A stretch of 41,334 bases of DNA, from IMG/VR virus record IMGVR_UViG_3300045988_110748; one strand, 5' to 3'. This document shows, piece by piece, positions 3,116 to 41,334 of the stretch. The number at the start of each line of letters is the position of its first letter. Within the stretch, counting starts at the first letter, position 1. The notes under the pieces are model-generated. The model did not search any database and was not told the DNA's origin. It saw only the letters and a list, made by a program, of their open reading frames with translations. This DNA comes from a virus. The position numbers were made by a program, and so were the translations under genes.

Positions 3116-5578
3116 ATGAAAAGCTGGACTGATACAGCAAAAGCGAAATGGCGGGATAGCGACTCACGCCAAATTAAGGCAGAAATTGAACTTGGGCATT
3201 ATACATGGGTGCCGCCCCCGCCCGAACCTGACGAACCGGACGTACCCGAACCCGAACCGGGGGAAGTTAAAATAGCTTACAGAATAGAGCCTGGCGAGAT
3301 TGTAGGGAACTCCGCCAAGATAGACGAGGCCATATCCGATGCGGAAACCATCAAATATGGCACGGTACAGCCCGCAGCACTTGAAATACAGATTGTCGAA
3401 GATAGCGAGGAAGTAAGTGAGGTAGAGCGGTATAGCCAACATCTGGACGGATACGTTAAAGGGCGTATCTGGGATTATGCGATAGGCCACAAGATAACGG
3501 TATATCTATGGGATACAAGTAATGTGTTTGAAATGGGGTCTCCTTATGTCGCTGAATTTTACATTGCTGGGGTTAAAGGCGAGGGCACGACAAAATTTAA
3601 GACTATTACGGCATATGACGCGCTGAGCCTTTTTGACAAAGACGTTTCCGATTGGTACAACGGCCTTGACTTCAACGGGCTTACCCTTAAAGTGTTCCGC
3701 GAGAGCCTATGTACATATTGCGGCGTGGAATTTGAGAGCGTAACGCTGCCCAACGACAGCATGACCATAAGCCGCACAATGTCCGCAACGTCCATATCGG
3801 GGCGCGATATCCTTTCTGCGTGCTGCGAACTCAACGGCTGCTGGCCTAAGATAGAGCTATGGGCAGACGTACCTCCGGACTGGGATATCTCATTCATGGG
3901 AACAATAAACAAACTCCGCTGGGTGACGCTTGGCGGCACATCGTGCGAAACGTTTGATTACAGTCAATACGACTATACTTTCCGTCCCGACAGCACCCGC
4001 GAAGAATATGACTGCAAGGGCATTAACGCCGTTGTGGTACGGGCAACCGAAGACGATGTAGGCGGGCATTACCCCGCAACCGTGCAGGATAACCCGTACA
4101 TCATACAGGGCAATTTCCTATGCTTTGGCAAGACCACGGCGGAGCTTACCACCATAGCGCAAAACATATATAACCAGATAGCGAACAAGCCATACAGGCC
4201 GCACAAAACGGTTATAACGGGGCGGCCTTACCTTGAACCGGGCGACAAGGTAACGGTGAAATTCGCCGAGGGCAACGGCGGGACATTTGACACCTATATA
4301 CTCAAGCGCATAATGACGGGCGAGGCCGCCCTGCTGGATACCTATGAAGCCAAGGGGCAAAAGGAGCATAGGGAGCAGTATGGCATATCCCAACAGATAC
4401 AGCAGATACAGGGCAGGACAAACGAACTGTCCCGCACGGTTGACGAAACCGTAAACACCATTACCCGCATCGAGTACCTCACCCCCGTTTTGTCGAAAAC
4501 CGACCCGTCAGCGGAATGGACGGACGATGAAAAGGCGGCGAAAGAGGGCTACCAATGGTTTGACGGTACTGACTTGCGCATATGGGACGGGGCGGCATGG
4601 AAGCTGACCATATACCCCGACTATAACCAAAGCACACAGCCCACAAACGCCAAGGAGGGGGAATACTGGTATAACCCGACAACGGGCGAGATAAAGAAGC
4701 TTGTCGGCGACACATGGATGGCTGATAGCACGGTATGTATCCCCACAACGTGGACGCAGACCATGCAGACACAGTTAAAGATTACCGCCGAGGGCGTACA
4801 AAGCACCGTCACAAAGGATAATATCATATCCACCATCAACCAGAGCGCGGAGAGCGTAAGCATAGACGCAAGCAAAATTGACTTGACGGGCTATGTCACA
4901 ATAAACTCCCTGAAAGCAGGGGGAACCACGCAGATTGACGGCGGGCGCATAACCACGGGTACGGTAGCGGCAGCGCGTATCGATGTTGATAATCTCTACG
5001 TTAAGCACCTGAGCGCGGCTGATGGGACATTTTCGGGAACGCTTAACGCGGTGAACGGTACTTTTACCGGAACGCTGCAAGCCGCGAGCGGCACCTTTTC
5101 ATCCCTTGACGCTGCGGGTGGGTATGTCCATTTTGGGTATGATTATATATCCGTTTACGGGGTCGAAATAGGGTGGATCCCAAGAATAGCATCGCAAATA
5201 TGTATAGTGCCATCTGGCGCAGGCATTGGCAACGTTGGTATAGGCGATTATTATTGGGACCAGGTTAAAGCTAACCGACACCCAACTGCATCATCGATAC
5301 GATACAAAAAGAACATACTCGCTGCAACTGAAACAGACTTTAGCGATATAAGCAATGTCCGCATTGTGACATTTAACAATAAAAACGGCAGCGACGCAGG
5401 GCGGCAGATGGGCGTTATTGCAGAGGAACTGTACAAAGTATTTCCGTATGCTGTGTGCCTAAATGATGCTGGTGAGCCCGACGGCGTGGAATATGGCAAG
5501 TTATCACTGCTTGCCATTGAAGCAATACAAAAACTCGAAAAGCGCGTGAAAAAACTTGAAGAAAGGAGACTTATATGA
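3116..5578 (+). CDS. Tail-associated/tail fibre protein with C-terminal intramolecular chaperone (Peptidase_S74-like) domain
   Basis: 820 aa. The C-terminal ~98 aa from nt 5282 (PTASSIRYKKNI...GVIAEELYKVFPYAV...YGKLSLLAIEAIQKLEKRVKKLE) matches the S/D-x-R-x-K autoproteolytic chaperone domain pattern of tail spikes. Confidence 0.8.
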   Translation: MKSWTDTAKAKWRDSDSRQIKAEIELGHYTWVPPPPEPDEPDVPEPEPGEVKIAYRIEPGEIVGNSAKIDEAISDAETIKYGTVQPAALEIQIVEDSEEVSEVERYSQHLDGYVKGRIWDYAIGHKITVYLWDTSNVFEMGSPYVAEFYIAGVKGEGTTKFKTITAYDALSLFDKDVSDWYNGLDFNGLTLKVFRESLCTYCGVEFESVTLPNDSMTISRTMSATSISGRDILSACCELNGCWPKIELWADVPPDWDISFMGTINKLRWVTLGGTSCETFDYSQYDYTFRPDSTREEYDCKGINAVVVRATEDDVGGHYPATVQDNPYIIQGNFLCFGKTTAELTTIAQNIYNQIANKPYRPHKTVITGRPYLEPGDKVTVKFAEGNGGTFDTYILKRIMTGEAALLDTYEAKGQKEHREQYGISQQIQQIQGRTNELSRTVDETVNTITRIEYLTPVLSKTDPSAEWTDDEKAAKEGYQWFDGTDLRIWDGAAWKLTIYPDYNQSTQPTNAKEGEYWYNPTTGEIKKLVGDTWMADSTVCIPTTWTQTMQTQLKITAEGVQSTVTKDNIISTINQSAESVSIDASKIDLTGYVTINSLKAGGTTQIDGGRITTGTVAAARIDVDNLYVKHLSAADGTFSGTLNAVNGTFTGTLQAASGTFSSLDAAGGYVHFGYDYISVYGVEIGWIPRIASQICIVPSGAGIGNVGIGDYYWDQVKANRHPTASSIRYKKNILAATETDFSDISNVRIVTFNNKNGSDAGRQMGVIAEELYKVFPYAVCLNDAGEPDGVEYGKLSLLAIEAIQKLEKRVKKLEERRLI

Positions 5579-7282: not shown

Positions 7283-8026
7283 ATGAAAAGATACTTTGCA
7301 ATGGTGCTTGCCGTTGTGCTGCTGTGCATATGCACGGGCGCAATGGCTATGGGCTGGGTGCGCACGGATAATCCGCCCCCGACTTATACCGTGACCGTCA
7401 CTAAGCTGGACAAGGTGGCGACCACCAGCGGCGCGGCCTATACCCCTGCACCGGGCAAGGCTGCTACAGTCGGCACGGTGGTGTACTTTACGGCAAAATT
7501 TTTGGATGCCGAAGGCAATCCCGTGCAGGGCACTATCAATCTTACGGATATGGACGTGCTGTATCTTGACGGCGATGTAGTCGCCGCGATAGTCACAGGC
7601 GCATACCCCGCCGTGCGGGCGGTATACAAGTATACTACCCCATTGGCGGAGCTGACCTATGACGGCAAGCCCGTGACCATAAGCGGGGATACCGTGACCA
7701 TAGGCAGCTTGACATTCATCCGCCGCAATGGCGTGGCGGTAGATGTGTCCATAGCGGGCGGCCTTGCCGACCTGACCCGCGAGCTGAACGCGCTGAATAT
7801 GACGCTTGACAACATCTACGCGGGCAAGATATACATGGACGATGCTGCGCTTGTGGCAAATCTCGGGCAGCACATCAAAGCCGAGGCTACGGCAGTATGG
7901 GGTGCTGATGGCGTGGTAGTGCGCACACCCGACTTGCCGCAGACTGGATCCGCGCCCGTGTATATAGGCTATATAATGATTCTTGCCGCGCTGGCCCTGG
8001 GAGTAAGAGTATGGGCGAAAAGGTAA
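7283..8026 (+). CDS. Secreted LPXTG cell-wall-anchored surface protein
   Basis: N-terminal signal peptide MKRYFAMVLAVVLLCICTGAMA. C-terminal sorting signal LPQTGS (7934-7948), followed by the hydrophobic stretch APVYIGYIMILAALALGV and the basic tail RVWAKR. Confidence 0.8.
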   Translation: MKRYFAMVLAVVLLCICTGAMAMGWVRTDNPPPTYTVTVTKLDKVATTSGAAYTPAPGKAATVGTVVYFTAKFLDAEGNPVQGTINLTDMDVLYLDGDVVAAIVTGAYPAVRAVYKYTTPLAELTYDGKPVTISGDTVTIGSLTFIRRNGVAVDVSIAGGLADLTRELNALNMTLDNIYAGKIYMDDAALVANLGQHIKAEATAVWGADGVVVRTPDLPQTGSAPVYIGYIMILAALALGVRVWAKR

Positions 8027-8688
8027 AGGAATTTTTGGCTTACCTTGAAAGCCACATCGGCGACGCTTACGTCTGGGGCGCGCAGGGCGAAAGGGTAGAC
8101 AACCGCGCCGACCTTGAAAAATGGGTGCGGCGCAAGGAAACTTCGCGGGCAAATGCCGAACGCGCCCTTGCATACATCAAAAAAGCCACCAAAACGCCGC
8201 TGTACGCCTTTGATTGCAGCGGCCTTATCATTCATTGGCTGCGTGACATAAAAGGGCTGATTGACGGTGATACAAGTGCCGCAGGACTGTACAGACAATG
8301 TACCAAAAAGGGCAAGCTTGCCGCGTGGCAGATGCAGCCTGGCGACCTTGTATTTAGGTACAGCTTCGCCAAAGGCAAAATGGGACACGTTGGCGTATAT
8401 GTCGACAACGGCATGGTGATAGAGGCGCAAGGCCGTGATGCTGGTGTAGTGATGCGCCATCTGTCTTGCGGCGGCTGGACGCATCAGGGCAGACACCCCG
8501 CGCTGGCCGAGGATACCGCTCCAACTGTCTTTAGGCTGACATCGCCCATGATGCGCGGCGAAGCTGTCAAGGCTATGCAGACCGCGCTGAATGCTTGCGG
8601 CTACGATTGCGGCAACGCCGATGGAATATGCGGCAAAGCCACAATGGCGGCTGTAAAGGCCTTTGCAACAGCCCACGCGGAGGTGTAG
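8011..8688 (+). CDS. Endolysin: NlpC/P60 peptidase + peptidoglycan-binding domain
   Basis: YVWGAQGE, FDCSGLIIHWL (catalytic Cys) and GHVGVYVDNGMVIEAQG (His) form the NlpC/P60 pattern. The C-terminal GEAVKAMQTALNACGYDCGNADGICGKATMAAVKAF is PG_binding_1-like. Confidence 0.9.
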   Translation: MGEKVKEFLAYLESHIGDAYVWGAQGERVDNRADLEKWVRRKETSRANAERALAYIKKATKTPLYAFDCSGLIIHWLRDIKGLIDGDTSAAGLYRQCTKKGKLAAWQMQPGDLVFRYSFAKGKMGHVGVYVDNGMVIEAQGRDAGVVMRHLSCGGWTHQGRHPALAEDTAPTVFRLTSPMMRGEAVKAMQTALNACGYDCGNADGICGKATMAAVKAFATAHAEV

Positions 8689-9622: not shown

Positions 9623-9651
9623 TTGACATATGCCTGATGCTGTGGTATTTT
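9623..9651 (+). promoter_or_regulatory. SigA-type promoter with extended -10
   Basis: TTGACA (9623-9628), a 17-nt spacer, then TGgTATTTT (9643-9651). It points into the non-coding repeat unit. Confidence 0.55.
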
Positions 9652-9654
9652 AAT

Positions 9655-9748
9655 AGTGCCATCCGGCAACGGATGAGGATTGAAATATTTGATTTTTCGT
9701 TTTTGCGTCTGGGACGCATGCCACCCGCTTACGGGTGTGGATTGAAAC
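9655..9748 (+). CRISPR. Mini CRISPR-like unit: two type I-C-like repeats flanking one 30-32 nt spacer
   Basis: R1 is TGCCATCCGGCAACGGATGAGGATTGAAAT (9657-9686). R2 is TGCCACCCGCTTACGGGTGTGGATTGAAAC (9719-9748). The period is 62 nt. The stem differences are compensatory. The 3' ends match the GGATTGAAAC/T handle. Confidence 0.6.
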
Positions 9749-9771: not shown

Positions 9772-9809
9772 GAAAGAAAAAGATGCACCGCCGTGCATCT
9801 TTTTTCTTT
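9772..9809. terminator. Bidirectional rho-independent terminator
   Basis: AGATGCAC-cgcc-GTGCATCT stem (9781-9800), flanked by GAAAGAAAA upstream and TTTTTCTTTC downstream. It closes the + strand repeat unit and the - strand gene that ends at 9816. Confidence 0.75.
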
Positions 9810-9815
9810 CCCCTG

Positions 9816-10109
9816 CTATTCCACCCATCCCCAAAGATTTATCCAGTTTTTGGGGCAAATTATCCGGTACATATAGGGCGGATTCCTCCAGTTGAGCCAG
9901 TCGAATATCCAGGCATCACCCCATTCATTATCAGCCGCCAGTGCATCCAGCTCTGGTATCCGCTCATCTGATACGCAGTACACCCCGTAGCCCTCATCCG
10001 TGATGTAGTGACGCAAAAACTCCATGTGATACTTTTCGGCTAAGGCCATCAGCGTGGCCTTGGTTCTCGGCATTCTCGCTTCCATTTTTTCTCTCATTTG
10101 GGGCGGCAT
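9816..10109 (-). CDS. Hypothetical Trp-rich protein (start may be an internal Met)
   Basis: Second gene of the leftward operon driven by the promoter at 10466-10494. No family was recognised. Confidence 0.55.
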   Translation of the reverse strand: MPPQMREKMEARMPRTKATLMALAEKYHMEFLRHYITDEGYGVYCVSDERIPELDALAADNEWGDAWIFDWLNWRNPPYMYRIICPKNWINLWGWVE

Positions 10110-10132
10110 TGCCGCCCCTTGTCCTCTGCGTC

Positions 10133-10417
10133 TTAGCGGTTCAGCGTTTCGGCGGCGTGCTTGGCTACTGCCGCGTCATAAGCGGATTCGCAGTCCTCAA
10201 AGCTATCAAAGTCTATATCCAGCTCAAAGCACAGCGCCTCGACAAGATTCGGTTCCCACTCGGCATCGTCGTCTATGGCCGCTATAAGCTCATCTGCCGT
10301 AGCCGCGCGGACTTCGCTGCGGGGGAAGTCTTTTTCCGCTACCCGCCACATGGGGATAAAATCTTCGCCATATTGCTCATAAGTCTCGGTGCCTTCAATC
10401 GCTTTGTAAACCTTCAT
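10133..10417 (-). CDS. Hypothetical strongly acidic small protein (94 aa)
   Basis: RBS GAGGGAG before the ATG. It lies directly downstream of a consensus promoter. The sequence is D/E-rich (AAIDDDAEWEPN, ELDIDFDSFEDCE). Confidence 0.65.
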   Translation of the reverse strand: MKVYKAIEGTETYEQYGEDFIPMWRVAEKDFPRSEVRAATADELIAAIDDDAEWEPNLVEALCFELDIDFDSFEDCESAYDAAVAKHAAETLNR

Positions 10418-10465
10418 TTTTAACTCCCTCTGGGGCTTTTGCCCCTTGCTTTATCTTATGGCTAT

Positions 10466-10511
10466 ATTATACAGCAGATTTTATACTTTGTCAAGCGTTT
10501 TGCCTGACAAA
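10466..10511 (-). promoter_or_regulatory. Consensus promoter (copy A) with palindromic operator over the -35
   Basis: On the - strand: TTGACA (10489-10494), 17 nt, TATAAT (10466-10471). The palindrome TTTGTCA-N11-TGACAAA spans 10487-10511. Confidence 0.7.
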
Positions 10512-10529
10512 GTTAAAAATATTTTTGCC

Positions 10530-11009
10530 CTACATATATATGCCGAAAACCTCTGCCAATGTGGCTTTGTGCTTTTCGGGGATTGGCCGCTTCCCGCCTG
10601 TCCAGTCGGATACGGACTGGCGGGTCATGCCGCAAGCAGCGCCGACTTTTTCCAGCGTCAGCCCCTTTTCGCGCATTTTTGCCGCAAGGTATTCGGGGTC
10701 GCTAAGGATGGGCGCGGCCTTACCGCGATAAAAAGCCAAGTCCCACATACATTGCTGCTGCGCGCTTATGACCTTATCACCATCGTCAAAATCTTCGGGC
10801 GCAAGCGGCTGGATCGCGTCGCTTATGGCGCGATCAAGGGGGCGCGTCATCTTGCGGGCGGCCATAAGCCACCGCATGGACAGCGCGAAACCGTGTGCCG
10901 GACGGCGTTGCGCCTCCGCGAATAACGCTGGCTCGCTAAACTTATCGGGGCTGATGTGCCACATCAGCCCGTAGATGTACCCAAGTGTTTTTACTGCTTC
11001 ATCTCGCAT
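10530..11009 (-). CDS. HTH (XRE-like) DNA-binding protein, C-terminal HTH
   Basis: The C-terminal KGLTLEKVGAACGMTRQSVSDWTGGKRPIPEKH is a helix-turn-helix pattern. It is the second gene of the operon from promoter copy B. Confidence 0.7.
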   Translation of the reverse strand: MRDEAVKTLGYIYGLMWHISPDKFSEPALFAEAQRRPAHGFALSMRWLMAARKMTRPLDRAISDAIQPLAPEDFDDGDKVISAQQQCMWDLAFYRGKAAPILSDPEYLAAKMREKGLTLEKVGAACGMTRQSVSDWTGGKRPIPEKHKATLAEVFGIYM

Positions 11010-11025
11010 TTTTTCTCTCCTTTTT

Positions 11026-11634
11026 TTATTTTAATAACATGGGCAGCAGCGCGTCGCGATTTTCCATTATGTACTCCCAGCACTGCCGTATCATAGCGGG
11101 CTGTATGGCTTCCCTGCTGCCGAATACCTCTATTTGCCGCCCGCTGAGTAGCTCTATGCCGACAAGGCATCTCTTGGCGCGGCGCTCCTCCGGCGGCGTT
11201 GTGCCGTAGTCTCGCGCATATATGCCGTAGGCATCCACAAATTCAATTGGGGTTATGTTGGCCAAGCCGGACTCTATGTTATTGATTTCGTATTCGGCGG
11301 GTTCCTTGGCTTCTTCGTTTGGGGTTTCTTCCGTTTTCTCAGTTTCGGGTTCTTCGGTTTCGGTGCGGGGGACGTAGACCACGATGGTCTTTGTTTCTTT
11401 GTTGTAGCTGCCGCGCTCGGTCTTGCATTCGCCATAGTTTTCTTTGTATTCGCGGTAGGACATTTCTACGGCTTCGCAACCTTCGGCGTTCTCGGCGTTT
11501 ATGTGGGCTTCGTAGCAATCGGGGCAGTCGCCGTAAGTCTCATACCACTTGATTTTGCGTTCGCGTTGTTCGGTCGTACCAAACAGCTCTATCGTAGCAG
11601 TGTGGCCGCAGGAAAATGTTACATCGTACTTCAT
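11026..11634 (-). CDS. Hypothetical protein with N-terminal Cys/His cluster and acidic linker
   Basis: 202 aa with RBS GAAGGGAG. It contains SCGH...CPDCYEAH and a Glu/Thr/Pro-rich linker. No family was recognised. Confidence 0.7.
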   Translation of the reverse strand: MKYDVTFSCGHTATIELFGTTEQRERKIKWYETYGDCPDCYEAHINAENAEGCEAVEMSYREYKENYGECKTERGSYNKETKTIVVYVPRTETEEPETEKTEETPNEEAKEPAEYEINNIESGLANITPIEFVDAYGIYARDYGTTPPEERRAKRCLVGIELLSGRQIEVFGSREAIQPAMIRQCWEYIMENRDALLPMLLK

Positions 11635-11684
11635 AATTTCTAACTCCCTTCGGGCTTGTCGCCCTTGCTTTATCTTATGATCAT

Positions 11685-11730
11685 ATTATACATCGGCCTG
11701 CTCTATTTGTCAAGCGTTTTGCTTGACAAA
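11685..11730 (-). promoter_or_regulatory. Consensus promoter (copy B) with palindromic operator over the -35
   Basis: On the - strand: TTGACA (11708-11713), 17 nt, TATAAT (11685-11690). The palindrome TTTGTCA-N11-TGACAAA spans 11706-11730. It is a near-duplicate of 10418-10530. Confidence 0.7.
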
Positions 11731-11772
11731 ATTAAAAATATTTTTGCCCGCTAAATGCCCTATAAAATCCCT

Positions 11773-11803
11773 CCCCGCGCCCTGAGCGCGGGGCATATTT
11801 TTT
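11773..11803 (+). terminator. GC hairpin + T-run (terminator/insulator or leader structure) upstream of cargo operon
   Basis: CCCCGCGC-cctga-GCGCGGGG followed by CATATTTTTT. Confidence 0.5.
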
Positions 11804-11833: not shown

Positions 11834-12271
11834 ATGTGGAATCCCAATCCCTTTTTTGGCGGCTATCAGCAGCCCCAACAGTATCAGCAGCCCGTGCGCG
11901 CCCAAGTCCCCCAAGTCAATGGCGAGGGCGGAGCCAAGGCGTACAGCCTTGCGCCTAATAGCAGCATCCTGCTGCTGGACACCACCGCGCCCATAGTCTG
12001 GCACAAGTGTACCGACAGCGCGGGGTATCCTACACTGACCCCGTACACCATCACACCGTATCAGCCCGCACCGCCGGTGGACATAAATGACCTTGCGGCG
12101 AGAATATCAAAATTGGAGGACAAATTAAATGCCGAATCCCATACTGCAAGCAATGAAAGCTGGAAGCCAGCAGACCCCGCAAATATCCCCGCAGCTAATC
12201 GCCCAGGCCAAAAGCATGATGGGGATGCCCGCGCAAATGCAGCAGGTAATGCGGATGCTCGGCGGGCGTGA
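11834..12271 (+). CDS. Hypothetical Gln/Pro-rich protein
   Basis: RBS AAGGAGG. The N-terminus is MWNPNPFFGGYQQPQQYQQP, followed by a folded-looking core and a coiled-coil segment (LAARISKLEDKL). The last ~47 codons overlap the next gene and look out-of-frame-like. Confidence 0.5.
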   Translation: MWNPNPFFGGYQQPQQYQQPVRAQVPQVNGEGGAKAYSLAPNSSILLLDTTAPIVWHKCTDSAGYPTLTPYTITPYQPAPPVDINDLAARISKLEDKLNAESHTASNESWKPADPANIPAANRPGQKHDGDARANAAGNADARRA

Positions 12272-12347
12272 CCCCCAGCAGATGTTTTACAGCCTGTGCC
12301 AGCAAAAAGGCATAGACCCTGAAAGCATCTTATCACAGATACGATAA
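12129..12347 (+). CDS. Hypothetical Gln/Met-rich helical protein (72 aa)
   Basis: RBS GGAGGA lies 8 nt upstream of the ATG. An in-frame TAA sits immediately before the start. The sequence has protein-like composition. Confidence 0.6.
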   Translation: MPNPILQAMKAGSQQTPQISPQLIAQAKSMMGMPAQMQQVMRMLGGRDPQQMFYSLCQQKGIDPESILSQIR

Positions 12348-12399
12348 ATCACGCGCGATTTATATACCAAAAAATTAAATTTGTGAAGGAGAAAAGACA

Positions 12400-13026
12400 A
12401 TGGATAATGTACCCTCTTTGGCGGATATCGCCGCCGTGACAGACAAAAATGACGGCCTTGGCGGCAGCATGGGCGGAGGATTCTGGATCTTCGCGTTAAT
12501 CGTTCTCCTCGCCATGATGGGCGGAGGCTTTGGCGGCTGGGGCAATCGCGGCAACGGTGACTACGGCCAGTACGCGACCGCAGCGGCGCAACAGGAAATC
12601 CTTTTCGGCCAGCATTTTGGCCAGCTTAATGACCGCTTGACCAACATTGGCAACGGCGTATGCAGCCTTGGCTACGACATGCAGGGCAATATCGGCCAGT
12701 TGGGCAAAGAGATGGCCTTGGCGCAGAACGGCACGAATATGACCATAATGCAATCCGCGAACGGCATACAGTCCCAGATGGCGGAGTGCTGCTGCGCCGT
12801 GCAGCGCGGCATGGATGCCATCAACGCCAATATCGACGCAAAATTCGCGGCTCTTGAAAAGGCACAGCTTGAGCAGCGCATAGCACAGCTTGAGCAGGCC
12901 AATAACCAGCTCTTTGTGCGCGAGCAGCTGACGGGCGTGGTACGCTACCCCAACGGCTACACTTACAACGCCGGGAATAGCCCGTTTTGCGGCTCCGGCT
13001 GCGGCTGCGGCAATAGCTGCTGCTAA
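12400..13026 (+). CDS. Hypothetical membrane protein: Gly-rich N-terminus + TM, coiled coil, Cys-rich C-terminus
   Basis: RBS AAGGAGA. Features are GGSMGGGFWIFALIVLLAMMGGGFGGWGNRGNG, an internal CCC, QLEQRIAQLEQANNQL, and the terminal CGSGCGCGNSCC. Confidence 0.75.
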   Translation: MDNVPSLADIAAVTDKNDGLGGSMGGGFWIFALIVLLAMMGGGFGGWGNRGNGDYGQYATAAAQQEILFGQHFGQLNDRLTNIGNGVCSLGYDMQGNIGQLGKEMALAQNGTNMTIMQSANGIQSQMAECCCAVQRGMDAINANIDAKFAALEKAQLEQRIAQLEQANNQLFVREQLTGVVRYPNGYTYNAGNSPFCGSGCGCGNSCC

Positions 13027-13061
13027 GACATGACACACTATCCGGCATTGCCGTGACTATC

Positions 13062-13089
13062 GGGGCGGCTTAGACCGCCCCTTGATTAT
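13062..13089 (+). terminator. Intra-operon hairpin (weak terminator/attenuator)
   Basis: GGGGCGG-cttaga-CCGCCCC followed by TTGATTAT. Confidence 0.4.
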
Positions 13090-13103
13090 GAAAGGAGAAA
13101 ATT

Positions 13104-13514
13104 ATGGCTTGTAAAAATATTTGCCAACTTTGCCCACGTCTTATCATATCCCAGTCCGTGACATTTGTGGCGGGTACTGGGCTTATTATCAATCTGCCCG
13201 CAGGAGTGTACGCCAACGGCGAGAAGTATTGCATCGTTGTGGCGCAGAGCATACCCGATACCACCACCATATCCGCGCCCGTATATATCACCATCGGCAC
13301 AGGCACGGCACAGTATCCCCTTACCAACCGCTGCTGCGCACAGGTTACCGCGTGCAGCATGCGCAAGCGCACCAAATACAGCACCGTGGTATCCACCACC
13401 CCCACGGGCGGGACGTTTAAGCTGCTCGGCAACCCACCTTGCGCACCGAATAACGACTTGACGGGGCTGACTGGCGGCACGGTCGCCACCGTAGCGGAGG
13501 CGGCTAAAAAATGA
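13104..13514 (+). CDS. Hypothetical Cys-rich beta-type protein (136 aa)
   Basis: RBS AAAGGAGA. The N-terminus is MACKNICQLCP. There is an internal RCCAQVTAC and a C-terminal PPCAP. The segments between are Thr/Val/Ile-rich. Confidence 0.7.
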   Translation: MACKNICQLCPRLIISQSVTFVAGTGLIINLPAGVYANGEKYCIVVAQSIPDTTTISAPVYITIGTGTAQYPLTNRCCAQVTACSMRKRTKYSTVVSTTPTGGTFKLLGNPPCAPNNDLTGLTGGTVATVAEAAKK

Positions 13515-13819
13515 AGCTGATTAACGATTTATCCGACCAGATTTGCGAAGAAATCGCGGACGCTGAAAAGTATGCTAAGTGGGCGCTTACGGTCAAGGAC
13601 GATATGCCAACCGTAGCGCAGACCCTGTACACCATATCGGGGCAGGAGCTTACCCACGCATCCATGCTGCACGACCTTGTAGTCCGCGCCATATCGGACT
13701 ACAAGGCCAAGCATGGCGACCCGCCCGCCGATATGCTGACGCTGTACAAATATTTGCACGGCAAGCAAATTGAAAAGACCGAGTGTGTAAAAAGGTATCA
13801 GGAGATGTATAAGGCGTAA
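13511..13819 (+). CDS. Hypothetical ferritin-like/four-helix-bundle protein
   Basis: ATGA coupling to the upstream gene. It is helical, with EEIADAEKY and QELTH (E...ExxH half-site pattern). Confidence 0.7.
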   Translation: MKLINDLSDQICEEIADAEKYAKWALTVKDDMPTVAQTLYTISGQELTHASMLHDLVVRAISDYKAKHGDPPADMLTLYKYLHGKQIEKTECVKRYQEMYKA

Positions 13820-14024: not shown

Positions 14025-15167
14025 TTAATCGCCGCCGTTGCCGTGCGCTTTGGGGCTGGCAACTTTGCGGCAACTTTTTTCAAATGCGCCCTGTAACTGT
14101 TCTGCACTGTATTTTTCCTTCTGCGCCGAAAGGTGTGAATATATTTCAAGCGTGATTTTCGCGTTGGCGTGGCCTAAATATCGCTGCGCCGAAAGCACGT
14201 CCACACCCGCGTTATACAGCACGCTGGCGTAATTGTGTCGAAGGTAATGCGGGGTTATAACCGATATCATCCGCCCGCCTTTTTCAATCGCGTCAATCTC
14301 CAGCGCGATATCGTACAGCCGCGCCATCAAATCGTCCCATAGGCGGTATCGCGTCGCATTGCGGTGATATGACCCTGTGGACGACGGTACTACATACGAC
14401 TGCGGCAGACCGCGCACGGGGCGCAGCTTGTCAGCCAGTTCGCGCGGCATGGGTATCGTCCGCACGGACTTATCCGTTTTGGGTGCATCTATTTCCCCCG
14501 TCTTGCCCGCCGCCTGCTGTTCAACGCGAATTGTCCCCGCCTTGAAGTCAACGTGCCGCCATTGCAGGCCGCAAGCCTCACCGTAGCGCATGCCCGTGTA
14601 ATATAGCAGCGCAAGCATTAGCGTGCCGTCCTCGTCCATCAGGCGCAGAACCGCATCCGTCTCCGCGTCCGTCAATGCCCTGCGCGTCTCCTTTGGCTTG
14701 GACGGAATTGTAAGCCCGACAGTGATGTCACGCGGGATAAGCCCCTGACTATACGCCCGCTGAAATACCCCGCGCAGGATTGTAGATATGTTGCCTATTA
14801 TGGCCGCGCACGTGTCGGCCTTGGCGTTCAGCAGCCGCTGTAAATCCTCCGTGGTAATTGCCGTCAGCCGCCGCCCCGCCAACGCGGGGAAGATGTGCTT
14901 ATATAGTGCCGTGCGGTATGACATTTGCGCGGATACGCCTATATGCGGCTGCTTATACACCTCATACCATGTCAGCGCGTATCGGTCAAAAAGTATTCCC
15001 TCCGGCACTGCGTTTGCTCCCGTGACGTACTTTTCCCGCGCCGCCGCCTTAGCCGCTTCCAATTCTTTTTTGGTGCGCCCTGATACATACTTGACTATGC
15101 TTTTCCCGCTTGCGTCCGTGCCTACAGTTATTTTTGCACGGTAGCGCCCATCTTTTTGCTTCGCCAT
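14025..15167 (-). CDS. int: Tyrosine recombinase / phage integrase
   Basis: 380 aa. An N-terminal SAM-like domain is followed by the catalytic pattern TGMRYGEACGL...HYLRHNYASVL...LGHANAKITLEIYSHL (R, H-x-x-R, Y). Confidence 0.95.
   Translation of the reverse strand: MAKQKDGRYRAKITVGTDASGKSIVKYVSGRTKKELEAAKAAAREKYVTGANAVPEGILFDRYALTWYEVYKQPHIGVSAQMSYRTALYKHIFPALAGRRLTAITTEDLQRLLNAKADTCAAIIGNISTILRGVFQRAYSQGLIPRDITVGLTIPSKPKETRRALTDAETDAVLRLMDEDGTLMLALLYYTGMRYGEACGLQWRHVDFKAGTIRVEQQAAGKTGEIDAPKTDKSVRTIPMPRELADKLRPVRGLPQSYVVPSSTGSYHRNATRYRLWDDLMARLYDIALEIDAIEKGGRMISVITPHYLRHNYASVLYNAGVDVLSAQRYLGHANAKITLEIYSHLSAQKEKYSAEQLQGAFEKSCRKVASPKAHGNGGD
14056..14080 (+). repeat. Tandem (C/G)(T/C)GGCAACTTT x2, copy 2 (inside the integrase 3' end)
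   Basis: CTGGCAACTTTGCGGCAACTTTTTT is a direct repeat of 13837-13860, about 219 bp away. Confidence 0.6.
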
Positions 15168-15273: not shown

Positions 15274-15759
15274 TTATGGCCGCCTGAGCCATCCCACGGC
15301 GGGGTTAAGCACATCGTATAAAAAACCCCCTATCAATATCCCGGTTACGCTTACGCTGTACACCACCGCCCACCGAAGCCATTTGCCAAGCTGCTGTATA
15401 CGCCTGTCCTTTTCCGCAAGCAGCAGCCTGACTGCGTTGGTGTACCTCTGTGTAGGCGCTTCGGCCTCCTGCGGCACGGCCCCGTAAATCTCGTCCGCAA
15501 ATTCATGCATTGTCGCGCCTAAGCCTTGGGTAACAAGTATTTCATACGTCGCCATCGGCGTACCTGTTTCGCCCTGCAAAGTGCGTTTGAGCGTGGATAG
15601 CGGGATTTTACTTCTTCGCGCTACGTCCTGAATCGTCACGCCGTGTTTTTCCCGCAGCCTTGCAAAAGCATCGGCATACTTTTGGTTACATTCGGTGATT
15701 GTGTCCACATTTTCGCCCTCTTTCTTCTGTTTTCTATTTCTGATACCCAAAAGGCTCAT
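15274..15759 (-). CDS. XRE-type HTH protein with C-terminal transmembrane segment (immunity/repressor-like)
   Basis: The HTH is HGVTIQDVARRSKIPLSTLKRTLQGE. The C-terminal TM is WAVVYSVSVTGILIGGFLY. The ATG at 15759 lacks an RBS. The GTG at 15708 (after AGAGGG) is an alternative start. Confidence 0.7.
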   Translation of the reverse strand: MSLLGIRNRKQKKEGENVDTITECNQKYADAFARLREKHGVTIQDVARRSKIPLSTLKRTLQGETGTPMATYEILVTQGLGATMHEFADEIYGAVPQEAEAPTQRYTNAVRLLLAEKDRRIQQLGKWLRWAVVYSVSVTGILIGGFLYDVLNPAVGWLRRP

Positions 15760-15815
15760 TTTTGATACCCAAAAGGCTCATTTTTTTACCAATATTTTGT
15801 CGAAAGGCTCATTTT
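15741..15815. repeat. Perfect 22-bp tandem duplication plus a third partial copy (operator candidates)
   Basis: TGATACCCAAAAGGCTCATTTT occurs at 15741-15762 and 15763-15784. AAAGGCTCATTTT occurs again at 15803-15815. Confidence 0.8.
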
Positions 15816-16047
15816 TAGCCCTATAAATTGCTCCCGATATGCGGTACGCTTGATATGCGCATAGGGGCGCACCCGGGGGCGGCGCGACCTTACCTTGCTT
15901 CTCCACCGCCCCCTCCACCCACCATAGATTATATGATGTATGGTGTCTGTGATATGGTATCATATCTTAACAATTTTTTCACGGAGGATAAGACAATGAC
16001 GCGCACAGAATTTTCCCACACCGTTGACCGCTTGGGCGAAGAAGGCG

Positions 16048-16377
16048 TTAGCCTTCTCCGTTGTTACGCTGAGCTGCTAAAAATTTCGCATATGACGCAA
16101 GCGCAGCCCGCCCCTGTTCATCAAGACAATCGTAAAGATTAAGTATCTCGGCTTTTTCGGCTTCCATTTGCGAGGGCGCTGCATCTGTTAAATCGTCCAG
16201 CGTACATCCCAGCGCCCGCGCAATCGCTTTCATTGTCTCAAGGTTCGGGTTTGTGGTAGCGCCGCTGCTGATTTTGCGCAGCGTGCTAAGCGGCACACCC
16301 GACGCAGCGGCAAGCTGCTCTAAGTCCATCCCAAGTGCTTTGCGCAGCTCGGCAAACCGCCCAAATTTTGTCGGCAT
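16048..16377 (-). CDS. CI-like XRE-family repressor (109 aa from Met-26 of the tracked ORF)
   Basis: ATG at 16377 after AAGGGGAG. The HTH is LEQLAAASGVPLSTLRKISSGATTNPNLETMKAIARAL. It is divergent from the cro-like gene. Confidence 0.8.
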   Translation of the reverse strand: MPTKFGRFAELRKALGMDLEQLAAASGVPLSTLRKISSGATTNPNLETMKAIARALGCTLDDLTDAAPSQMEAEKAEILNLYDCLDEQGRAALASYAKFLAAQRNNGEG

Positions 16378-16408
16378 TTCATCACTCCCCTTTGCTTTAT
16401 CTACTGAT

Positions 16409-16437
16409 ATTATACACCACATCTTATACCAAATCAA
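16409..16437 (-). promoter_or_regulatory. Leftward switch promoter (copy C of the shared promoter/leader)
   Basis: On the - strand: TTGATT (16432-16437), 17 nt, TATAAT (16409-16414). The leader AGATAAAGCAAAGGGGAG resembles copies A and B. Confidence 0.65.
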
Positions 16438-16480: not shown

Positions 16481-16509
16481 TTGACAAGTGCCTATGATGG
16501 TATTATAAT
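16481..16509 (+). promoter_or_regulatory. Rightward early promoter (PR-like)
   Basis: TTGACA (16481-16486), 17 nt, TATAAT (16504-16509). ATGATGGTATT is repeated at 16493-16503 and 16526-16536. Confidence 0.75.
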
Positions 16510-41135: not shown

Positions 41136-41334
41136 ACTACACGCTCCCGACGAGCGTAAATATTGACGGAATTGAACATCCCATCAGGTCAGATTATCGC
41201 GTCATATTGGATATAATATCCGCCTTGAACGATGATGATTTTACCGACAGAGAAAAGGCCATCGCCATGATGCGCCTTTTTTTTGTTGACGCTTACGCGG
41301 TGACGGACTGGGAGAAAGGGCTAAAGGCGGCAGC
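41132..41334 (+). CDS. Phage Gp15-like tail assembly protein, N-terminal part (continues at base 60 of the window via the circular junction)
   Basis: ATGA-coupled ATG at 41132. MNYTLPTSVNIDGIEHPIRSDYRVILDIISALND reads on through the terminal overlap into 1-420. The joined length is 187 aa. Confidence 0.75.
   Translation, partial: MNYTLPTSVNIDGIEHPIRSDYRVILDIISALNDDDFTDREKAIAMMRLFFVDAYAVTDWEKGLKAA
41276..41334. repeat. Terminal overlap copy 2 (identical to 1-59)
   Basis: Same 59-mer as at the window start. This is a circular-contig signature. Confidence 0.95.

Follow-up and report, generated by a model that had tools for sequence, protein, structure and literature searches.

What is the function of a minus-strand gene island in which two near-identical strong promoters precede small acidic proteins and a helix-turn-helix (HTH) gene? 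The island occupies positions 9816-11752 of the virus record IMGVR_UViG_3300045988_110748, a 41,334-nucleotide (nt) stretch of phage DNA that was analysed whole and is referred to below as the window. We think it quite likely that this is an anti-defence island, most probably directed against type I-C CRISPR (clustered regularly interspaced short palindromic repeat) immunity, and that it is built of repeated promoter-operator-leader cassettes under one local autorepressor.

The repeated element consists of two segments of ~115 base pairs (bp) on the minus strand, 10418-10530 (A) and 11635-11752 (B). An initial annotation, made from the letters of the window, had described them as near-duplicates, and they indeed align with 83% identity over ~165 aligned columns, with long invariant blocks; a repeat finder recovers both. 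The perfect TTGACA-17-TATAAT promoter claimed for each segment was also borne out, with 12/12 consensus matches. The 41-kb genome contains three such perfect sites, against a chance expectation of ~0.23 (one mismatch allowed), the third being the early rightward promoter (16481-16509, plus strand), which diverges from the cI-like promoter. Since two of only three perfect genomic sites lie in the island, its promoters belong to the top strength class of this phage. The palindrome TTTGTCA-N11-TGACAAA reported over the -35 is present in both segments and occurs exactly twice in the genome (10487-10511 and 11706-11730) versus 0.09 times expected by chance, but its true form is a 10-5-10 inverted repeat, TTTGTCA(A/G)GC-AAAAC-GCTTGACAAA, whose right arm includes the -35 at both promoters. 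The conserved leader with a short GC hairpin and a strong ribosome-binding site (RBS) was likewise recovered, the 4-5-bp hairpin lying just 5' of the RBS in both cassettes. The parts of the two cassettes are as follows.

11635-11752, minus strand: cassette B, comprising an A/T tract (11732-11749), operator, promoter, leader and RBS, and preceding the 202-amino-acid (aa) gene
11706-11730: putative operator B, a perfect 10-5-10 repeat, TTTGTCAAGC-AAAAC-GCTTGACAAA
11685-11713, minus strand: promoter B, TTGACA-17-TATAAT, 12/12
11652-11664, minus strand: leader hairpin B, GGGC-GACAA-GCCC, just 5' of the RBS AGGGAG
10418-10530, minus strand: cassette A, which begins at the HTH-gene stop codon and drives the 94-aa and 89-aa genes
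10487-10511: putative operator A, TTTGTCAGGC-AAAAC-GCTTGACAAA, with one arm mismatch
10466-10494, minus strand: promoter A, TTGACA-17-TATAAT, 12/12
10432-10445, minus strand: leader hairpin A, GGGGC-AAAA-GCCCC, -10.7 kcal/mol

A terminator is absent between the HTH stop codon and cassette A, and read-through from promoter B is therefore likely.

We compared the island with related loci, taken from the contexts of HTH homologue clusters and from IMG/VR relatives. Searching these loci with a profile built from the two cassettes gave 40 copies, of which 25 are distinct; they number 1-3 per genome, and each lies directly before a cargo gene. Altogether, some 40 related contigs from gut phages contain the cassette. 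Contigs in the first locus set, which supplied the cassette alignment, all encode close HTH homologues except one (L027), which has a ribbon-helix-helix (RHH)-type regulator. TATAAT, AAGCAAGGG and the RBS core GG are the same in all 40 aligned cassettes; variation is seen in the promoter spacer and in the loop of the hairpin.

The gene most relevant to control of the cassettes is the last gene of the cassette B operon.

10530-11009, minus strand: candidate Aca-like (anti-CRISPR-associated) autorepressor, 159 aa, with an N-terminal ~100 aa without a known domain and a C-terminal XRE-type HTH

The C-terminal XRE-type HTH had been recognised by the initial annotation and corresponds to HTH_3 at residues 109-157 (E 2e-5, 24.8 bits vs a cut-off of 23). 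Homologues of the 159-aa protein form a narrow family of 17 clusters, all metagenomic; this HTH family is apparently new, and its N-terminal domain is unexplained.

Regulator type and operator type showed zero disagreements across all loci examined. The 159-aa HTH protein goes together with operator type 1 (TTTGTCARGC-N5-GCTTGACAAA). Within this type, one locus (L015) has TCTGTCA..TGACAGA, a symmetric double change, and a group of others (L019-23) has AAGT-AAAC-ACTT (type 1b), again a symmetric double change, with a spacer one base shorter. Judging from these symmetric arm changes, the dyad symmetry of the predicted operator is under selection. The HTH proteins of L019-23 differ in the recognition-helix region as well, having GISRQAVHDWVCGTSQIREKHK in place of GM(S/T)RQ(A/S)VSDWT.G(K/R)RPIP. 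Two further sets of loci have exchanged the regulator altogether. The HTH gene is absent from L182 and L186, where a 64-aa basic open reading frame (ORF) takes its position, and both of their cassettes are without the TTTGTCA repeat and instead contain TAGGTATATACCTA in the spacer between a TTGACG -35 and the -10. A 61-aa RHH-like protein with several weak RHH-family matches is the regulator on contig 123769 (L187 plus L190) and in L027, and every cassette there (three of them in contig 123769) contains ACTATNCCGGNATAGT, i.e. ACTAT(A/T)CCGG(A/T)ATAGT, in the promoter spacer. The -10, leader, hairpin and RBS are unchanged in both swaps. Taken together, the symmetric arm changes, the helix co-change and the two complete swaps support the view that the palindrome is the operator of the co-encoded regulator, and the HTH protein is very probably an operator-binding autorepressor of both promoters.

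A distant group of HTH homologues (54-56% identity; L002, L003 and L024-26) is without the cassette and without the window-type operator. An inverted repeat was sought in these five loci and not found; their promoter is different and is flanked by TACATCA direct repeats. A degenerate version of the operator pattern also matches, in IMG/VR, unrelated phages with a palindromic -35 and neither cassette nor HTH gene, so the short pattern alone is not diagnostic. One unrelated IMG/VR group (L156-L180), also lacking cassette and HTH gene, has TTGTCAAGT-N5-ACTTGACAA over a TTGACA-N17-TAGAAT promoter, and this kind of design, a palindrome with the -35 at its centre, may be one that recurs.

The leader, too, has a counterpart outside the island.

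16385-16437, minus strand: promoter of the cI-like repressor gene, TTGATT-17-TATAAT, outside the island, without palindrome and without hairpin

This promoter contains an operator-less third copy of the -10 and leader core, TGTATAATAT..GATAAAGCAAAGGGGAG (16385-16416). The core that it has in common with the cassettes reads GATAAAGCAA(A)GGGG, and the stretch from -10 to leader can also be given as TGTATAATAT..GATAAAGCAAAGGGG. Because the same ~45-nt leader (5' hairpin plus strong RBS) stands under three regulators and its core recurs at the cI-like promoter, it probably acts as a generic high-expression 5' untranslated region (UTR) rather than as an RNA target of the regulator. An Aca2-like RNA site in the leader hairpin is unlikely for the same reason. 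The hairpin stem displays loop and indel variation only, with zero compensatory pairs.

Evidence that the cassettes serve an anti-CRISPR function comes from the genes they drive in sister phages. In contig 123769 a cassette stands before each of a 243-aa gene, a stand-alone AcrIC5 homologue (itself followed by the RHH-like gene) and the 94-aa gene, in that order. Its AcrIC5 homologue (in L187) is a 60-aa protein that matches PF22147 with 82 bits vs a Pfam cut-off of 27, and its 94-aa gene is 97% identical to that of the window. Protein P0020 of L027 joins, in one reading frame, a homologue 88% identical to the 94-aa protein with a complete AcrIC5 domain (PF22147, E 1e-21, 77 bits), and is driven by a type 3 cassette. 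The unrelated contig L188 encodes a further AcrIC5 homologue and, ~1 kb away from it, a homologue of the 64-aa regulator. Inhibition of type I-C systems by AcrIC5 has been validated, and its homologues occur in Firmicutes and Actinobacteria (PMC7913775).

Cargo presence and absence are highly variable among near-identical phages, and it is the HTH gene that is constant while the genes on both sides of it vary.

Upstream of the HTH gene: 202, 194 or 140 aa (with a common Zn-ribbon N-domain); 187 aa; 250 plus 140 aa; or 174 aa
Downstream of the HTH gene: 94 or 97 aa; 61 aa; the 89-aa gene present or absent; or no gene at all

A handful of small acidic domains make up the cargo proteins in mosaic fashion. 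The 94-aa fold recurs at the N-terminus of the 250-aa protein and at the C-terminus of the 243-aa protein, the C-terminal half of the 94-aa protein recurs as stand-alone 61-aa proteins, and in L004 and L015 the 94-aa domain is fused to other cargo domains. In the human-faeces phage MT835524 there is a third cassette, which comes with a 227-aa gene, and the 89-aa gene and the repeat units described below are absent. In L004-L008 the whole island (cassette, cargo, HTH gene and repeat units) is inverted relative to the four-gene block by the integrase, and in L004 (4559-6700) it adjoins the gene for the small terminase in a phage whose packaging module is different; the inverted and relocated island thus moves as a unit. 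The acr/aca-like character proposed for the locus (acr, anti-CRISPR) is supported by its fixed HTH gene, its variable neighbours, an operator that tracks the regulator and the use of the same cassette to drive AcrIC5 in sister phages. We conclude that the island as a whole is likely an anti-defence locus, chiefly an anti-CRISPR I-C one.

Which of the proteins in the window would carry that function is less certain. The layout given by the initial annotation (a 202-aa and an HTH protein under copy B, a 94-aa and then a Trp-rich protein under copy A) stands, except that the Trp-rich ORF most likely has 89 rather than 97 aa.

11026-11634, minus strand: gene X, 202 aa, isoelectric point (pI) 4.6, immediately upstream of the regulator gene, a usual place for acr genes
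10133-10417, minus strand: 94-aa protein, pI 4.05, net charge -17, with a confident model (predicted local distance difference test, pLDDT, 89)
10100-10118, minus strand: GC hairpin after the 94-aa stop codon, found also in L001, which is without the next gene
9816-10085, minus strand: 89-aa Trp-rich protein (mechanical ORF extending to 10109, 97 aa); not present in L001

The last of these most likely starts at the ATG at 10085, because its homologues in relatives have 89 aa and the upstream ATG lies inside the GC hairpin at 10100-10118. The 202-aa protein begins with a domain of ~90 aa, modelled as a CxH...CxxC Zn-ribbon plus beta sheet (pLDDT 96), followed by a disordered acidic linker and a variable C-terminus. 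The N-domain defines an uncharacterised family of 2654 cluster representatives (E <1e-3), whose members mostly stand alone or have variable tails. Two fusions were observed, one to pentapeptide repeats and one to DUF7666 (P0092, 298 aa; P0152, 433 aa). The fold of pentapeptide repeats is known from DNA mimics such as Qnr and MfpA. The PADLOC defence models gave zero matches for the four island proteins, and the PF22147 (AcrIC5) profile gave zero matches among the ORFs of the window, in which tblastn with the AcrIC5 domain returned only a 10-residue YGEDF motif. The 89-aa protein had no informative database match. Structure prediction, proposed earlier as a check, showed no resemblance of the 94-aa and 202-aa models to a known Acr fold. 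It is by association, namely position, composition, variability and linkage, that an anti-CRISPR role is suggested for the 202-, 94- and 89-aa proteins, and we give any particular cargo protein of the window an even chance at best, or slightly less, of being an Acr.

A second link to type I-C systems lies at the end of the island. The initial annotation had noted that I-C-like repeats adjoin the locus. They are adjacent, but lie on the opposite strand, in plus sense, under their own promoter; a terminator stands between, and the transcript would converge with the operon rather than be part of it.

9623-9748, plus strand: small-RNA unit, consisting of a promoter, I-C-like repeat unit 1, an intervening segment and unit 2
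9623-9651, plus strand: small-RNA promoter, TTGACA-17-TATTTT with a TG extension
9656-9686, plus strand: I-C-like repeat unit 1
9687-9717, plus strand: conserved 31-nt intervening segment, which forms a small hairpin of its own
9718-9748, plus strand: I-C-like repeat unit 2
9772-9805: bidirectional terminator hairpin, which ends both the operon and the repeat-unit transcript

Each repeat unit has a 6-bp stem and ends in (T)GGATTGAAAC/T, and the two differ at ~9/31 positions. One or two such units sit at the island end in the window and in most relatives, where the stem shows compensatory variants (CACCCG/CGGGTG, CGCCCG/CGGGCG and CATCCG/CGGATG); in single-unit relatives the unit resembles a recombinant, or hybrid, of units 1 and 2. 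I-C-like units also adjoin the HTH locus of the distant HTH group. The units have the features of an RNA anti-CRISPR (Racr) or solitary repeat unit, in that a repeat-like stem-loop with a handle is present in a virus, outside a normal array and with no cas gene nearby. Rfam gave zero matches at its gathering thresholds and, in the island, only sub-threshold ones, with CRISPR-DR9 scoring 20 bits vs 45. Since the 31-nt segment is conserved in relatives and its only IMG/VR matches are to the same locus, it is unlikely to be an adaptive spacer against other phages. The spacing of the units is close to the I-C spacer length, and the repeat pair may for this reason be a fixed-guide CRISPR RNA (a mini-array).

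Several relatives, unlike the window, have I-E-like units, CACCCCCGCT(T/G)ACGCGGGGAAC, inside the island, antisense to the I-E repeat on the island coding strand. They are placed after cargo genes of the 'MLNEK' family or the 250-aa type, and in L002 within the 5' UTR.

L001 ~5020-5060, minus strand: I-E-like unit
L002 7213-7300: I-E-like unit
L004 5477-5500: I-E-like unit
L015 4189-4212: I-E-like unit
L024 4274-4297: I-E-like unit

These observations are consistent with a simple sequence of events. On DNA entry the repressor would be absent, and both consensus promoters would fire fully, as strongly as the early rightward promoter. Cassette B would then yield the 202-aa and 159-aa HTH proteins, and cassette A, together with read-through from B, the 94-aa and 89-aa proteins. 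As the HTH protein accumulates, its dimer would bind the 10-5-10 palindrome, -35 included, and turn both promoters down, and repression would persist late in infection and in the lysogen. We infer from sequence both the early timing of island expression and the actual binding and repression by the HTH protein.

A number of findings weigh against an anti-CRISPR island of this kind. Searches of the island proteins against Pfam, PHROGs, PADLOC and PDB sequences returned only HTH_3 and an unannotated PHROG, with no Acr family among the matches. The 94-aa model and the 202-aa N-domain had no significant match among PDB folds, and the 94-aa model matched only uncharacterised phage proteins in BFVD. 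As for the regulator, a profile of the 17 HTH homologues, run against PDB sequences with E up to 10 and hence compared with those Aca family members that have solved structures, detected no solved Aca and no other solved structure; at 159 aa, with its unexplained N-terminal domain, the protein also exceeds typical Aca size. The covariation of helix and operator in type 1b is a single evolutionary event, since L019-23 form one clade and the co-change therefore counts once. In searches with the repeat pattern, the genome matches were swamped by unrelated single-copy betaproteobacterial elements and the metagenomes gave phage copies only; neither search found a host array with matching repeats. 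Finally, the moron position of the island, its orientation with the repressor and integrase genes and its cI-type leader would equally fit expression in the lysogen.

That last point is the substance of the strongest alternative, that the island is a lysogenic-conversion array whose prophage-expressed genes are of use to the lysogen, for instance through superinfection exclusion or by defending it against other phages, with the HTH protein as a local regulator. Phage morons are promoter-gene-terminator insertions defined for the lambdoid phages HK97 and HK022. The island resembles them as a set of autonomous transcription units, each of promoter-gene-terminator anatomy, which lie between the lysis and integration modules near the prophage end and whose presence varies among close relatives; it also runs in the same orientation as the cI-like and integrase genes and has the -10 and leader core in common with the cI-like promoter. 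In contrast to morons, its units have one standardised, repressor-gated promoter cassette and a dedicated regulator, and promoters of consensus strength under tight autorepression fit a burst followed by shut-off better than steady lysogen expression. The proteins are small, soluble and very acidic, with zero PADLOC matches and no membrane or exclusion-type features, and sister arrays on the same cassette carry AcrIC5 homologues and adjoin CRISPR-repeat mimics. We therefore regard a conversion array as improbable. Slightly less probable again is an immediate-early takeover of the host unrelated to immunity, for instance through inhibitors of transcription, replication or division in the host, with an early repressor dedicated to them. 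Promoters as strong as the early rightward promoter, cargo consisting of orphans of unknown fold and the very large size of the Zn-ribbon family (the 2654 representatives given above) are all compatible with such a role, yet variable cargo among near-identical phages is typical of accessory arms-race genes rather than core functions, and the direct linkage to AcrIC5 and the repeat mimics weighs against it as well; individual cargo genes may still have such a role. A meaningless recent tandem duplication, with the palindrome an accident of the -35 sequence, could appeal to the TTGACA in the right arm and to the TTGTCAAGT-N5-ACTTGACAA palindromes at promoters of unrelated phages, but is refuted by the retention of the cassette in 1-3 copies across dozens of contigs and before different genes, by the symmetric change of the arms and by an operator type that switches with regulator type with zero exceptions.

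The anti-CRISPR island can be compared with two known systems. Aca proteins repress acr promoters via inverted repeats, often those of neighbouring operons too, and an RHH protein can replace the HTH protein (PMC13551039). One Aca acting on its own and adjacent operons through repeated motifs has been described for Aca1, Aca2, Aca11/13 and Aca14, along with RNA motifs in the 5' UTR and HTH-to-RHH replacement in the case of Aca14 (Feussner et al., NAR 2026, PMC13551039; Birkholz et al. 2019, PMC6765145), and two reports describe a strong promoter overlapped by an inverted repeat that is bound by the operon's own HTH protein (PMC6765145, PMC9410906). The island resembles these operons in its inverted repeat over a strong promoter, the regulator gene at the 3' end of the first operon, the repetition of the motif before the adjacent operon, an upstream cargo that is variable, small and acidic, the RHH-type replacement of the HTH regulator in relatives and the presence of a 5' UTR hairpin. 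It differs in several respects. The HTH protein is without detectable similarity to solved Acas and has 159 aa with an N-terminal domain of ~100 aa of unknown kind, and the duplication extends beyond the predicted binding site to the entire ~115-bp promoter-leader unit. In contrast to the Aca2 and Aca1 leader motifs, the island leader is constant across regulator types and so is probably not an RNA target. A validated Acr or Acr homologue is not co-operonic in the window, whereas one is present in sister loci.

The second comparison is with a Bifidobacterium pseudocatenulatum prophage, in which the RNA anti-CRISPR RacrIC1 comes immediately after acrIC5 (Camara-Wilpert et al., Nature 2023, PMC10651486). 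Common to both are I-C repeat-like small-RNA units directly beside candidate acr genes in a gut prophage, and AcrIC5 homologues occur in sister arrays of the phage family to which the window belongs. Unlike the acrIC5-RacrIC1 pair, the units of the window lie on the opposite strand under their own promoter, convergent and not bicistronic with the operon; moreover, there are two different units around the conserved 31-nt segment, and no AcrIC5 gene.

The architecture of the cassettes raises the further, more tentative possibility that the ~115-bp unit is a portable recombination joint in addition to a regulatory element: with a near-identical copy before each cargo gene, homologous recombination between cassettes would add, delete and reshuffle anti-defence genes. 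The occurrence of 1-3 copies, the mosaic cargo, the hybrid repeat units and the inversion in L004 are consistent with this idea without proving it, as is the finding of the same cargo behind cassettes with different spacer segments. The central bases of the operator are identical among cassettes of one genome, which suggests concerted evolution. If this were correct, the phages would possess an integron-like gene-cassette system without an integrase, operating within a genome or between co-infecting phages, in which only a short operator segment is swapped to match the array's regulator (HTH, 64-aa or RHH), and the 94-aa domain, the Zn-ribbon family and the 89-aa protein would each count as a new family with an anti-CRISPR or anti-defence role.

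The regulatory logic of acr-aca operons has already been described, so that this locus contributes new components and candidates but no new principle. Distinctive are the new-looking HTH family, the duplication of a whole cassette, three interchangeable regulator/operator pairs and domain-shuffled cargo. On offer as candidates are an apparently new Aca-type repressor and two alternative regulators on the same scaffold. To these come no fewer than five families of uncharacterised cargo, namely the 94-aa domain, the Zn-ribbon family (>2600 representatives), the 89-aa protein, and the domains 'MLNEK' and 'MKHTIK'. All of them are in physical linkage with AcrIC5 and with repeat mimics of the I-C and I-E types. 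With three operator/regulator pairs on a single promoter backbone, the phages would also supply strong, repressible promoters that are naturally orthogonal to one another. Human-gut metagenomes commonly contain the phage, and to our knowledge few CRISPR inhibitors are known for gut Clostridia.

The island is carried by a complete temperate siphovirus genome of ~41.3 kb (about 41,275 bp) in a circularly permuted assembly. An exact 59-bp repeat at the ends (positions 1-59 = 41276-41334) indicates a circularly closed, complete phage genome. Genes for tape measure, tail, endolysin (8011-8688) and a holin-like protein are on the plus strand, and the island occupies the classical 'moron' position, with the lysis genes on one side and the integrase on the other, close to the prophage end.

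14025-15167, minus strand: integrase
16048-16377, minus strand: cI-like XRE repressor
11773-11793: GC hairpin or terminator-like site, which bounds the island on the cassette B side

By large terminase, the closest cultured relatives are Clostridioides difficile phages (44-47% identity), and the unannotated MT835524 is 94% identical. Identical island proteins are present on hundreds of gut-metagenome contigs; the exact 159-aa HTH protein occurs in 299 indexed blocks of the public collection and was observed on 177 contigs. A search of species-representative genomes for a host with the HTH profile gave zero matches. Integrated copies were found among the contigs with identical island proteins, on contigs of 65 and 124 kb, and genes beside them carry the metagenome-assembled-genome labels Christensenellaceae bacterium, Clostridia bacterium and Clostridium sp., which place the host loosely.

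A block of four plus-strand genes (145, 208, 136 and 102 aa; 11834-13819) separates the island from the integrase; it is conserved in every close relative and terminates the integrated prophage. Its 208-aa protein has a Cys/Gly-rich C-terminal tail (GSGCGCGNSCC). In the interval between the integrase and cI-like genes, four tandem copies of AAAATGAGCCTTT(T/C)G (15740-15835, minus strand) are located 5' of a 161-aa HTH_31 gene (15274-15759) and look like operators or iterons. In one integrated copy (L152, 1-6600), two TIR-domain genes and a Band_7 gene flank the prophage end and may represent a host defence island next to the attachment site.

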